DNA of 62,948 bases, the filler included, from Octopus bimaculoides (Eukaryota): assembly GCF_001194135.2 (NCBI RefSeq). It is 3 parts of 3 records of this genome, joined end to end, with 100 filler letters (N's around TTAATTAATTAA, not from the genome) between each part and the next. Parts side by side here need not be neighbours in the genome. Positions count along the whole stretch, not along the records: positions 1 to 24,038 come from NC_068981.1; positions 24,139 to 47,307 come from NC_069003.1; positions 47,408 to 62,948 come from NC_068992.1. One strand, 5' to 3'. The notes under the pieces are model-generated. The model did no database searches and was not told where the DNA came from. It saw only the letters and a list, made by a program, of their open reading frames with translations. Positions 5,305-54,480 of the stretch are shown piece by piece (positions within the stretch are counted from its first letter, which is position 1; each line of letters starts with the position of its first letter). The position numbers were made by a program, and so were the translations under genes.

Positions 5305-5995
5305 ATATGTATATAATTAATTTAGAGAAGAACCACCACTCTATAACTCAGTCAACGAAGAACCCATCCAAAACCATCCTGTGAGGCATATACCATATAA
5401 ATACTTATCTAAAATTTTAATCTAAAATTTTAATAATTTTAATAATATATAATATATCATATAAAGAAATATTCATCATAAAAATATTAATCTAAAAATC
5501 AAATATAGTATAGATAGGACAGTAAAAATTAATACAATAAAATAATGTGTAAACGTATAAAAGTATAAAAGTCAGTACTTGTACATAGACTACGCGCGTT
5601 TCATGGCTGAAATAAGACTATATAAGATCATAAAAAATTCTATCCAAGTTCATTAGAACGGGAAAATGATTTTACTCCCAAAGTTCTAATGAACTTGGAT
5701 TGAATATTCTTATGATTTTATATAGTCCTATTTCAGCCATGAAACGCGCGTAGTCTATGTACAAGTACTGATTTATCTATACTTTATTTGATTTTTAGAT
5801 TAATATTTTTATGATGAATATTTCTTTATATGATATATTATATATACATTATTAGAATTATTAAAATTTTAGATTAAAATCTTAGATAAGTATTTATATA
5901 GTATATGCATATGCCTCAGAGCATGGTTTTGGACGGGTTCTTCGTTGACTGAGTTGTAGAGTGGTGGTTCGTCTCTAAATTAGTTATATATATAT
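5305..5995. repeat. ~690-bp imperfect foldback palindrome flanked by (TA)n
   Basis: Arms ~5305-5659 and 5683-~5995 are reverse complements with a 23-nt spacer. The left arm has a ~50-bp extra block near 5515-5570. Confidence 0.95.
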
Positions 5996-8462
5996 ATATA
6001 CTTTATTTAAAACCAGCAGAAATATAACAAAAAGCTGTTACTCATAGTTTCACATACATATATATCTGTCTTTTATTTGTTATATATATATATATATATA
6101 TATATATATATATNNNNNNNNNNNNNNNNNNNNNNNNNNNNNNNNNNNNNNNNNNNNNNNNNNNNNNNNNNNNNNNNNNNNNNNNNNNNNNNNNNNNNNN
6201 NNNNNNNNNNNNNNNNNNNNNNNNNNNNNNNNNNNNNNNNNNNNNNNNNNNNNNNNNNNNNNNNNNNNNNNNNNNNNNNNNNNNNNNNNNNNNNNNNNNN
6301 NNNNNNNNNNNNNNNNNNNNNNNNNNNNNNNNNNNNNNNNNNNNNNNNNNNNNNNNNNNNNNNNNNNNNNNNNNNNNNNNNNNNNNNNNNNNNNNNNNNN
6401 NNNNNNNNNNNNNNNNNNNNNNNNNNNNNNNNNNNNNNNNNNNNNNNNNNNNNNNNNNNNNNNNNNNNNNNNNNNNNNNNNNNNNNNNNNNNNNNNNNNN
6501 NNNNNNNNNNNNNNNNNNNNNNNNNNNNNNNNNNNNNNNNNNNNNNNNNNNNNNNNNNNNNNNNNNNNNNNNNNNNNNNNNNNNNNNNNNNNNNNNNNNN
6601 NNNGTTTTTTGTCTTTTCTTTGAAACTATATATATATATACATACATACATACATACATACATACATACATAAATACATACATACATTCACACATACATA
6701 TATTTTATCTCAACTCATTTTCCGGATGTGGTATGTGCCGAATTCTCATAAATTCAACATAAATAAATGCTTTCTGAGTTCAAATTCTGCAGTGAGAAAT
6801 TTCGCTCTTCATCCTTTAGGAGTCAATAAAATAGGCATGAATCAAGTAGTGGAGTCGATATAATCGACTTACCCCTTCCCACAAATTGTTGGCTTTATGC
6901 CTAAATTGGAAACGATTATTGTTATTATCGCCCTGATCCTAAAGAAGTAGTTTAAAACAAGGTGTGTACCTTTTAGGATATCAAACCCGGGCATGCATCT
7001 AACCGTGTTTATGAATAGATATATGTATGTATACATATGTGTGTTAGATATATTAATATGCATACTTTTGAATGGATTTGAAGTTCGCTTTGAATCACGA
7101 AATCCCTTGCAGAGTTTCACTGGACGAAAACGGGTGTCTGGTCGACCCATGACTTACTGAAATTTGCTAGGCGGTAACTATTGAAATGCTCAAGTGACAT
7201 GATGCTCCAGTAATTAAAATGGGCCGCCATTTACACTACCACTACATACGCTGTAATGTAGTTAGTAGGTATTCCTTTCATGAGACATGGAAAATACTAC
7301 TCAAAAGTAACTAAAGATCCATTTACATATATGCATGTATAATTAAAATACAACATAAATTCGACGCTACTTTTTGATTTGAAATTAATAAGAAATGTTA
7401 CATTAATATCTTCTCATCATTCTACAGATAAATGAGATCTAAAACGACGAGAGTCGGGTGTTGAAGTCGTTTAATCACGAGCAGATATCAAAAACATTTC
7501 TTCATCACGCTGACATTCCTAGATATTTAGGGTAGTTTCTGCTTTCCGTTACATCCGTGTATCAGTTGGATGTATTTATCAAATTGAATCAAGGAAGTCT
7601 CTGATAACATTTTCGAAGTTAAATTACTTTCGGTAAGGGCACGTCAGCCACAGAACAACAATTGAAGACTTATTCATAAAACGAAGAAATTAATAATTAC
7701 GTTAAATGTCAGATGAAATATTGCGTTCATGACATTGACAAAAACTGACCTTCCTCCTCCAACAGAATGTCATCAAATTACGTTTTAAAACATGTATATT
7801 TGTTTGTTTTGTTTTGTGTTCATGCCTATGTGTGCATGCCTATGTGTGCATGTGTGTGTATGTGTGTGAGAGTGTGTGTGACTGTGTGTGTGCGTTTGAG
7901 TGCGTGTGCATCTGTATGTGTAATTTTTGTAATACGTGGGAGTATAAATTTAAGTAAGAAATAAATCTGACAAAAAAAGAAAAAGAAAAAGAAAACCCAA
8001 AAAGCAAAGAACCCAACGGGAACCACCACAGACACAACAAGTATGAGGAAACGAGGAAAACAATGCAGTCACTCGACCTGCTAGAAATAGCAACCAAGTC
8101 TAATTTATTTCACATCGCTACCATCTTAACAAAAGCAAAACGCGTTGGATAATACCGTTTTAGATACATTACTCTGAGAAGTTGATACATAATCAAAACT
8201 AGAACAGCTTTCATTATAGGTTTATATGAAACGGCCGAACGTGGGGGTTAACAACAACAAAACGACGACAACAACAACGACAGCACAGCAGCGGCGGTGA
8301 AAGTAGTAATTTTAAGCTTTGGTGCAAGGTTAATAATTATAAAGAATGGAATGTACCATTGATGAATGGATGAATAGAAAAATCCAAATACTTTGGGATA
8401 CGAAATTAAAACAAAAGAATTTGAGCTAATAAGCATTTCAACACGCACAATGTGATACTTTT

Positions 8463-8670
8463 CTACTCTAAGCACAAAGCCTGAAATGTTTGGGGAGGGA
8501 ACCAGTCTATTAGATCGACCCCAGTACGCAACTCGTACTTAATTTATCGACCCCCGAAGGGATGAAAGGCAAAGTCGACCTCGGCGGAATTTGAACTCAG
8601 AACGTAAAGACAGACGAAATAACGCTAAGCATTTCGCCCGGCGTGCTTACGTTTCTGCCAGCTCGCCGCT
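8463..8670 (-). mobile_element. tRNA-derived SINE, family A (GGCGAGCTGGCAGAA head; GGTCGACTTTGCCTTTCATCC body)
   Basis: Near-complete copy. Further decayed copies at ~6770-6925, 8870-9270, 9690-9970, 10250-10440, 17600-17810, 18200-18330 and 18770-18880. Confidence 0.85.
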
Positions 8671-54068: not shown

Positions 54069-54140
54069 CCTCTCTTAGGCATATCTCATTGACAAAGTCA
54101 ATAAACTCGAAACATCAATGTCTGAGATTCCTGAGAGAGG
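54069..54140 (+). ncRNA. U3:A8 hammerhead, copy 3 (G10.1 deleted)
   Basis: ATCTCA-TTGACAA-AGT-CAATAA-ACTC-GAAA-CA-TCAA-TG-TC-TGAGAT. Confidence 0.75.
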
Positions 54141-54374
54141 GCAAAACTGAATGAACAGGGTGTTTCCACACCTTTTTACCATAAGAGAGATTTTTTTCTC
54201 CACGGTAACTGAAGTGTATTTGCCTTTAGCAGTTGAAATATGTGACAAACATATTTCAACTAACCTAAATTGTGAATATACTACTATATATATACTAATA
54301 AATTCAGGCCATGACAGACAGATAGGATGTTCTTGAAGCCTAGAATTTTAAACTTATGGAAACAATATTTACAT

Positions 54375-54480
54375 ATCACCTGAAGAAACACAACTAGATC
54401 TCAAAATGCAAGGAAACTGTTGTATGATCAAGTTCTTGCACACCTGGAGAACTACGTTGCATCGAAACAATTGTACTGAT
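54375..54480 (+). ncRNA. Hammerhead-like motif with long stem II, partly decayed
   Basis: ATCAC-CTGAAGA-[77-nt hairpin: CAAC/GTTG, TAG/CTA, TCTC/GAGA, TGCAAG/CTTGCA]-GAAAC-AATT-GTA-CTGAT. Confidence 0.55.

Follow-up and report, generated by a model that had tools for sequence, protein, structure and literature searches.

Which of the hammerhead-shaped motifs in a gappy, microsatellite-rich stretch of octopus DNA belong to true repeat families, and what machinery spread those families? The window, that is, the whole stretch analyzed (62,948 nucleotides (nt) from Octopus bimaculoides, 5,703 N in total), had been described in an earlier note as holding diverse non-autonomous hammerhead ribozyme elements mobilized by the enzymes of Penelope-like elements (PLEs). 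Several unrelated short repeat families with hammerhead-shaped motifs are present in the window. These families are not one class: short minimal motifs, a canonical-sized motif of the retrozyme type and motifs with a long domain II occur. It is likely that they are retroelements copied by the reverse transcriptase (RT) and GIY-YIG endonuclease of PLEs. Below, motifs are named by position and strand, and 3:8 denotes the core pair by which the families differ; coordinates are collected in Table 1.

Hammerhead-shaped motifs exceed the shuffled expectation

Among the 150 of 203 Rfam matches listed for the whole window, no hammerhead or transfer RNA (tRNA) was found, all being microsatellite-driven microRNA models, and Rfam on five short stretches also gave no hammerhead or tRNA match. 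Since Rfam is blind to these hammerheads, descriptors and shuffles were used instead. The main descriptor required a type I arrangement with at least four pairs in each of stems I and II and a palindromic stem III, and allowed any 3:8 combination and an optional extra base; its null consisted of 453 local dinucleotide shuffles. It gave six matches, two with an exact core and four with one mismatch, and the 3:8 pair is Watson-Crick in all six: G:C at 25325, U:A at 53377 and 53704, and C:G at 34207, 51154 and 21773. The two exact-core paired matches compare with a shuffle mean of 0.024 (maximum 1) and the four one-mismatch paired matches with a mean of 0.36 (maximum 3), whereas wobble or unpaired 3:8 matches number zero in the window against 0.96 per shuffle. 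With a paired share of 29% among null matches, all five of five families would be paired by chance with a probability of approximately 0.002 by our own arithmetic, an optimistic figure, like all the odds given here, because every descriptor was written after the loci had been seen. When one looser descriptor was applied, with the core exact and domain II allowed to reach approximately 100 nt, four matches resulted, three paired and one unpaired. At least three paired matches were seen in 2 of 1101 shuffles and no paired match in the reversed window; under this descriptor the excess is weaker than under the main one.

In the window, the relaxed-pattern check proposed in the earlier note favors its claim: matches exceed dinucleotide shuffles and, under the main descriptor, paired 3:8 combinations outnumber all others by six to none. 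The hammerheads that it had listed at 25.3/47.1, 34.2/34.4, 51.1 and 53.3-54.1 kb all stand: 25325 is an exact G3:C8 fold and 47149 a damaged copy of it, 34207 has one mismatch and 34420 is damaged, 51154(-) has a one-mismatch core, and 53377 is exact, 53704 has one mismatch and 54089 is damaged. The three core types that it named, C3:G8, U3:A8 and G3:C8, all occur. The palindromic stem III that it had ascribed to most motifs is found as ATAT, CG, CATCGATG, CATATG and CAATTG, and is lacking at 13.1 kb. G10.1-C11.1 together with an extra nucleotide after A9 is present at 25325, 34207 and 51154. Inverted partial copies accompany six hammerhead or hammerhead-like loci (5293-6007, 13253-13545, 24424-24524, 34115-34512, 36690-36938 and 53188-54280), against five claimed, and the arms of the hammerhead-bearing pairs are approximately 70-89% identical.

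A fortuitous origin, with AT-rich repeats happening to match a loose pattern, is refuted for the main loci and is hardly credible overall. The 13.1-kb motif does come down to chance, as may 21773 and the core at 5.7 kb, and two of the five matches of the long-domain scan described below are unpaired. On the other hand, the main, long-domain and looser scans all exceed shuffles, and the core is found again in each arm of the 34- and 36.8-kb pairs and three times over at 53-54 kb. The single-copy fold at 21773(-), of the C3:G8 type with a CTAG palindrome and a G12A change, could be chance.

The abundant G3:C8 family

The motif at 25325(+) has an exact core, a stem I of 7 bp, a stem II of 5 bp, the ATAT palindrome and U17; its cut is predicted after 25361, and a (TA)n run precedes the element. 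Four runs, namely two DNA contig sets from two species (X1 and X14 are the DNA runs) and two RNA runs, were mapped to 25140-25457 at 80% likeness. Matching contigs number 9,062 in one species and 8,994 in the other, which means thousands of distinct contigs and gives no copy number, and the summed depth rises several hundred-fold across the element. RNA reads on the element number 1,388 and 1,057, approximately 6% of the two runs.

Among the best 40 of 147 variant rows, the core 25325-25331 is untouched, and A13-A15.1, the palindrome and the 5' strand of stem I are also unchanged; the rows beyond these 40 probably lie under about 10% in frequency. Within the same 40 rows, the most frequent substitutions of the motif either lie in loop II, at 25341 (19%, X1) and 25343 (21%, X14), or preserve the pairing of stem I: A>G at 25364, at 43% and 22% in the two DNA runs, turns a U-A pair into U-G.

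The ends of the element are also informative. Strand switches make up 10 of the 15 joints listed (of 50), and nine of these start at the element's 5' end (25308-25323) with varied internal targets, which implies that inverted truncated partners recur in this family. Five of the nine inversion joints lie at 25354-25369, an AT-rich palindrome. Two classes of 3' end are seen, a short one (25449, running into TA) and an extended one (25452, with median loose lengths of 28 and 43 nt). On the 5' side of the element, loose ends are varied and AT-rich (agreement 0.46 in each DNA run) and have no long upstream sequence in common.

Two further observations concern this family. In the RNA reads over 25305-25452, A>G occurs at 25-27 places and T>C at 28, compared with 10 and 5 in the X1 contigs and 6 and 9 in the X14 contigs; such an excess would fit adenosine-to-inosine editing of paired inverted copies, the RNA and DNA being from different individuals. 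At 62052-62065, a 14-nt exact match to the core region is followed by a stem-I-like word, approximately 110 nt upstream of the endonuclease fragment at 62.2 kb, and is either a deleted copy or chance. A pattern scan of metagenomes for the G3:C8 motif returned seven loci (GC 0.57-0.74) in which the rest of the fold is absent, and these were rejected as chance.

The U3:A8 retrozyme-like tandem at 53-54 kb

The motif at 53377(-) combines an exact U3:A8 core with a helix I of 6 bp followed by an internal loop, a helix II of 4 bp, a helix III of 2 bp with a palindromic tetraloop (the CATCGATG palindrome) and C17; there is no extra base, and G10.1-C11.1 is present. The two arms of the tandem abut in head-to-head orientation at 53787/53795, TA runs lie close to the end of each, and a 39-nt extension (53156-53194) is carried by the minus-strand arm only. 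The 53795 arm starts approximately 5-10 nt past the predicted cleavage site. No RNA data set on record was listed for 53160-54600, which speaks neither for nor against expression.

The 327-nt monomer has a GC content of 36%, and the longest stop-to-stop frames listed are 81 and 90 codons. Its predicted circular fold reaches -84.2 kcal/mol, compared with -62.2 +/- 5.0 (best -76.7) for 100 mononucleotide shuffles, which are a lenient null. Several features of a non-LTR (long terminal repeat) retrozyme are found: tandem units within 150-450 bp with a type I hammerhead in each, GC below 50%, no long open reading frame (ORF) and a highly self-paired monomer. In co-folding, the intermolecular stem III formed in the predicted dimer. 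By its sequence, the family is retrozyme-like and carries a PLE insertion signature, namely the inverted arm and the one-sided 39-nt extension. By eye, a 14-nt word with one position different is common to this family (53428-53441) and the 5.3-kb family (5343-5356).

The 34-kb insertion and the 51.1-kb motif

The insertion at 34 kb lies within an exact 13-bp direct repeat and reads, in order, as an inverted 3' copy (hammerhead 34207, minus), a head (34254-34320), (AAT)n, a second hammerhead (34420, plus) and a 30-nt tail (34510-34539) present on the plus-strand arm only. The motif at 34207(-) is of the C3:G8 type with one mismatch and 34420(+) is a damaged copy of that type; since each has one core change, at different positions, their source is read as C3:G8. 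The family is single-copy in the window, and its head is GC-rich. The head holds A- and B-box-like words at 34254 and 34299, each one mismatch from the consensus. No tRNA was recognized in the head by ARAGORN (0 genes) or Rfam. The head is possibly tRNA-like, and a reading of the insertion as a short interspersed nuclear element (SINE) is a lead.

The minimal motif at 51154 lies approximately 1 kb 3' of the putative endonuclease fragment at 52.2 kb, across a 611-N gap. Its predicted dimer formed the intermolecular stem III in co-folding.

Motifs with a long domain II

Four motifs at three unrelated loci, 36846(+) with its inverted partner 36778(-), 59328(-) and 54380(+), share another layout: an exact C3:G8 core is followed by a domain II of 54-77 nt, by GAAA, by six bases C...G that form a palindrome or nearly do so, and by UA at the site (UG at 36778). 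G10.1-C11.1 is absent from them. Two such matches occurred in none of 1403 shuffles, the class having been defined after they were seen, and the scan gave five matches in all. Three of the four domains fold as long hairpins better than shuffles (z -2.8, -0.4, -2.7 and -2.3). The long-domain loci are not alignable with one another, all six pairwise scores among the four tested being within the shuffle range.

The hammerhead that the earlier note had placed at 54.4 kb is probably a degenerate one, to judge from its sequence: the core lies at 54380, 77 nt before GAAA, and the stem II base and the first stem I pair are mismatched. It was not caught by the long-domain scan or by the looser descriptor. 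In the literature searched, a domain II of 54-77 nt was not found in PLE hammerheads; two papers on RNA-virus ribozymes with a "long helix II", as well as Lünse 2017, Arkhipova 2017 and Przybilski 2007, lay beyond that search.

Proposed mobilization by PLE enzymes

From these insertions we infer PLE mobilization, which is supported by inverted 5'-truncated copies, one-sided tails of 30-39 nt, (TA)n flanks and a Hydra-clade-like endonuclease fragment. According to the available text of Craig et al. 2021 (bioRxiv 10.1101/2021.04.23.441226), an inverted copy and a tail of 30-40 bp are PLE features, and the part of Frangieh et al. at hand (PMC11167929) ties the tail to two RT start sites. In the window, an inverted 5'-truncated copy of this type is found at the 5' end, and the tail present at one end only (30 nt long at 34 kb and 39 nt long at 53 kb) falls within the 30-40 bp range. 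No one-sided tail was seen at 5.3-6.0 or 36.8 kb.

A plausible sequence of events is as follows. After a nick by PLE enzymes in AT-rich or (TA)n DNA, these enzymes would copy the RNA of the element on each of the two strands. This target-primed reverse transcription would yield inversion and tail, leaving an inverted 5'-truncated copy next to a longer one that bears a tail of 30-40 nt. Through the palindromic stem III, two motifs of source elements would pair and could cleave as a dimer, probably slowly or assisted by protein. The 327-nt U3:A8 family may release unit-length, circularizable RNA, as retrozymes do. G3:C8 would likely be tolerated, as in engineered double mutants, because the core needs the 3:8 pair more than a guanine at 8. 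Once inserted, copies would decay neutrally.

Enzyme remnants occur in the same DNA. The frame at 49.0 kb has long relatives in which an RT-like part precedes the matched endonuclease region; its core is without the CCHH cysteines, and DKT is found only in the homologue P0102. Since Pfam named none of nine homologues, the PLE label rests on motifs, and the sequence fits the Hydra clade as defined by Craig et al. The earlier note had placed PLE fragments at 27.1, 49.0, 52.2 and 58.4 kb. The 49.0-kb fragment is confirmed and that at 58.4 kb is supported as a lead; the 27.1-kb match is weak, and the 52.2-kb one is a motif reading that gained no support from Pfam, a search among window peptides or the protein-cluster Atlas. 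Word-index protein searches with the 49.0- and 58.4-kb fragments gave no match, and Pfam on 10 window peptides gave one convincing match, to a long interspersed nuclear element (LINE) RT at 56 kb. All of the PLE ORF pieces are broken fragments, so none is the mobilizer itself.

It is unlikely that the motifs are only 5'-truncated pLTR (pseudo-long-terminal-repeat) ends of ordinary autonomous PLEs instead of separate non-autonomous families. Most solo minimal hammerheads were so read in the accessible part of Cervera 2014 (PMC4209133); 51154, the sole hammerhead with a putative PLE ORF upstream of it on its own strand, lies 3' of an endonuclease-like fragment, and the ORF fragments at 48.6/49.0 kb are inverted in the same manner. 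However, no long sequence is common to the heterogeneous loose ends upstream of the G3:C8 element, the tandem of the 53-kb family has no ORF, and at 34 kb a single target duplication encloses a unit with a short head.

Alternatively, the inverted structures would have no connection with PLEs and would be DNA elements of the foldback or MITE-like (miniature inverted-repeat transposable element) kind, products of LINE twin priming, or assembly mirrors. A LINE RT is indeed present at 56 kb (Pfam RVT_1), and the scaffold is gappy, with the inverted pair at 45.0/46.2 kb being 98.7% identical around N runs. This explanation is disfavored and very improbable: at approximately 70-89% identity the hammerhead arms are not assembly mirrors, the arms point outward from a variable junction with one arm 30-39 nt longer, and strand-switch joints with varied breakpoints appear in independent runs. 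The claim of ribozyme elements mobilized by PLEs is supported in part: the insertion marks and the endonuclease fragment agree with it, whereas no hammerhead has an unbroken link to an ORF and two of the named loci are unconfirmed as hammerheads.

Cutting or shape

Several results, besides the after-the-fact descriptors and the smaller excess under the looser one, weigh against PLE-mobilized, cutting motifs. A clear target duplication outside microsatellites was seen in 1 of 12 flank comparisons, and unbroken sequence links none of the window's hammerheads to a PLE ORF. The 34420 copy gave no hammerhead fold when folded. In the predicted G3:C8 dimer, stems I and II are swapped and stem III is not formed, so that co-folding supports a dimer through the palindrome for two of the four motifs tried. 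RNA reads on the G3:C8 element come from both strands equally and their ends show no pile-up, for which fragmented cDNA libraries are a poor test; this fits passive transcription. Stem II changes in this family are C>T and G>A at CpGs without compensation, and are read as decay because of the CpG context. G12 is mutated in 2-3% of DNA depth and in 10-17% of RNA reads. In the available accounts, hammerhead cleavage is dispensable for insertion in vitro by an Anolis PLE, and among Xenopus retrozyme dimers eight of nine were inactive and one of nine was cleaved (bioRxiv 10.64898/2026.07.22.740005).

Accordingly, it is a real possibility, albeit the lesser one, that the G3:C8 and long-domain-II motifs hold the fold and do not cut, serving as a handle for a PLE protein or persisting as a hitchhiking relic of one founder. 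The reads without pile-up, the Anolis insertion result and the Xenopus dimers all agree with this; the C3G/G8C double change restores cleavage only partly in engineered ribozymes, including a PLE hammerhead, and one founder mutation pair would account for all copies. What argues for cutting is that both core letters are swapped with the pair kept, while G10.1-C11.1, the palindrome and all other core positions are unaltered and the common subfamily changes spare the fold. U17 would also avoid the G3-C17 mispair suggested by PMC3884650, by our own inference. It is worth adding that G8 supplies the general acid through its 2'-OH.

The preferred reading of PLE-copied families could be extended to a whole fauna of non-autonomous ribozyme parasites driven by PLE machinery: an active natural G3:C8 ribozyme present thousands of times in two or more species, a recurring class whose domain II spans 54-77 nt and whose site is UA, a U3:A8 retrozyme recording PLE mobilization, and a SINE with a tRNA promoter and a PLE hammerhead tail. 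We hold this extension only tentatively and consider it somewhat unlikely as a whole.

Unconfirmed loci and other features

Two loci of the earlier note could not be upheld as hammerheads. At 5.7 kb, only the 3' half (GAAA, CGCGCG, UA) is found in both arms, and the one-mismatch core at 5686 has no proper stem I; the arms may be truncated long-domain-II members. At 13.1 kb, the score is no better than that of chance AT-rich matches and stem III lacks a palindrome. Immediately beyond the 5.3-kb palindrome, at 5240-5265 on the minus strand, a hammerhead-like 3' half (GAAA, CG, UU) adjoins a (TA)n run.

Candidates at 8.9 kb and 45-46 kb were rejected as hammerheads. The former lies in an old head-to-head palindrome of a common repeat (8905-9075) with no convincing hammerhead. 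The nearly identical pair at 45007-45313 and 45946-46252 is a young insertion or an assembly mirror, and its left arm holds no hammerhead.

Other coding remnants include a broken LINE RT at 56072-57770(+) (E 3e-8), which we take to be RTE-like, and frames at 4187-5137 (minus) and 35100-35360 (plus), presumably LINE ORFs of the restriction-endonuclease type, for which Pfam was blank in the two frames tested. A frame at 29032-29289(+) resembles, by eye, the C-terminus of a Tc1/mariner transposase. A 175-codon frame at 43399-43926(-) with a hydrophobic stretch is possibly a host exon (Pfam blank), and a telomere-like array of a six-base repeat (60409-60552) adjoins an N gap.

Table 1. Coordinates of ribozyme motifs, repeat structures and enzyme fragments in the window
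Feature	Position	Strand	Details
G3:C8 element, intact	25308..25452	+	core 25325-25331, extra G 25332, stem II 25333-25351, GAAA 25352-25355
Second G3:C8 copy	47013..47159	-	core 47143-47149; 14-nt tandem duplication breaks stem II; (TA)n adjoins 3' end
Third G3:C8-family piece	24424..24524		3' part, minus, 24424-24498; hammerhead 3' half inverted beside it, plus, 24503-24524
Retrozyme-like tandem, 1.9 units of 327 nt	53156..53787	-	U3:A8 hammerheads 53704 (U4C) and 53377 (intact)
Inverted arm of 53-kb tandem, 1.5 units	53795..54273	+	U3:A8 hammerhead 54089: 1-nt deletion in stem II, one stem III change
Single insertion inside 13-bp direct repeat	34108..34552	+	repeats 34108-34120 and 34540-34552
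C3:G8 minimal hammerhead	51120..51159	-	A6U, extra A, CG palindrome; one-mismatch core 51154
Long-domain-II hammerhead	36706..36778	-	C3:G8, 54-nt domain II, G17; left arm of palindrome 36690-36938
Long-domain-II hammerhead	36846..36921	+	C3:G8, 57-nt domain II, CATATG palindrome, A17; right arm of palindrome 36690-36938
Probable long-domain-II hammerhead	54380..54475	+	C3:G8, 77-nt domain II, CAATTG palindrome, A17
Long-domain-II hammerhead	59251..59328	-	C3:G8, 59-nt domain II, near-palindrome CGTGCG, A17; absent from the earlier note
PLE GIY-YIG endonuclease fragment, Hydra-clade-like	48968..49225	+	CxCX5C linker; 621 relatives at E 0.001 or better
Piece of same kind of ORF, region just before linker	48580..48738	-	inverted relative to 48968-49225
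PLE endonuclease C-terminal fragment	62175..62392	+	E 3e-7; absent from the earlier note
Weak PLE RT fragment	27166..27261	+	GLYRDDGL; E 0.005 among 2085 window peptides
Putative PLE endonuclease fragment	52158..52430	-	frameshifted; motif reading only
Likely GIY-YIG C-terminal fragment, lead	58377..58595	+	unnamed eukaryote clusters at 0.96; closest cluster with a name at 0.90, GIY-YIG in 15% of its members
Head-to-head palindrome	5293..6007		hammerhead 3' half per arm: 5591-5602 minus, 5741-5752 plus
Direct and inverted repeat	12919..13545		hammerhead-like folds 13143 and 13452 (minus), chance level

Comparison with known systems

Earlier publications cover PLE minimal hammerheads, the U3:A8 pair, an additional base following A9, partial copies in inverted orientation and the view of retrozymes as derivatives of PLEs. 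In the part of Cervera and De la Pena 2014 available (PMC4209133), PLE minimal hammerheads are described with U3:A8, an extra base, palindromes and opposite-strand pairs 100-700 bp apart, and natural U3:A8 is given in the text at hand of Perreault 2011. The octopus motifs share with the former the presence of many families per genome, the extra nucleotide between 9 and 10.1, G10.1-C11.1, the palindromic stem III, U3:A8 and the opposite-strand pairs. They differ from it in the G3:C8 family, a pair found in 0 of the 56 motifs aligned in its Fig. S3, whereas the other families here are C:G or U:A. They also differ in the 54-77 nt domain II, the published one being short (usually a helix of 7-8 bp or less with a small loop). 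No cephalopod is included in the Fig. S3 alignment. In the literature covered, the G3:C8 swap appears only in engineered uses, as a partial rescue; Lünse 2017, Arkhipova 2017 and Przybilski 2007 lie outside that scope and could contain a natural case. Being natural and amplified, the G3:C8 family offers a ready way to tell whether selection on PLE hammerheads acts on cutting or on shape alone, given that cleavage is dispensable in the one in vitro PLE system.

The Hydra clade is reported to carry hammerheads and to insert into (TA)n (bioRxiv 10.1101/2021.04.23.441226, in the portion available), whereas the 49-kb fragment here is physically unlinked to any hammerhead in the window. The Hydra magnipapillata hammerhead, as drawn in Fig. 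S3 of PMC4209133, shares the U-U base of stem II and the UA site with the motifs at 36.85 and 59.3 kb and, unlike them, has a short domain II. The Schistosoma Sm-alpha SINE-like elements, in the sections at hand of PMC6765202 and PMC6155905, place a promoter-like head before the hammerhead, as is possibly the case at 34 kb; unlike them, the 34-kb insertion has a hammerhead of the PLE minimal kind, together with a PLE-type inversion and tail.

Among cephalopods, the available part of the giant squid paper gives 235 Hammerhead_1 matches, and a 2026 Octopus vulgaris repeat annotation gives 31 recently active PLE families, its text at hand being free of the words hammerhead and ribozyme. Descriptors that fix C3:G8 or a short domain II, and Rfam, miss the motifs described here, and hammerhead counts in such genomes are therefore probably too low.

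With metazoan non-LTR retrozymes, as described in the accessible sections of PMC7229834, the 53-54 kb family shares the tandem unit, one type I hammerhead per unit, low GC, a self-paired predicted circle and canonical helix sizes; it differs in its U3:A8 core. Li, Clavereau and Pollet 2026 (bioRxiv 10.64898/2026.07.22.740005) argue, in the text available, that animal retrozymes are non-autonomous PLE derivatives. No mollusc is sampled there and the word "tail" is absent from the main text, and the link to PLEs is drawn from co-occurrence and pLTR homology, whereas in the octopus it is drawn from insertion anatomy. The inversion-plus-tail signature may thus serve as a cheap, copy-by-copy test of PLE-mobilized retrozymes. 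Relative to these systems, four things would be new: a G3:C8 family of high abundance, a class of motifs with a long domain II, PLE-type insertion marks on a retrozyme-like array and the anatomy of the 34-kb insertion, their standing as natural ribozyme variants being conditional on the predicted cleavage and on the literature beyond the scope of our search.

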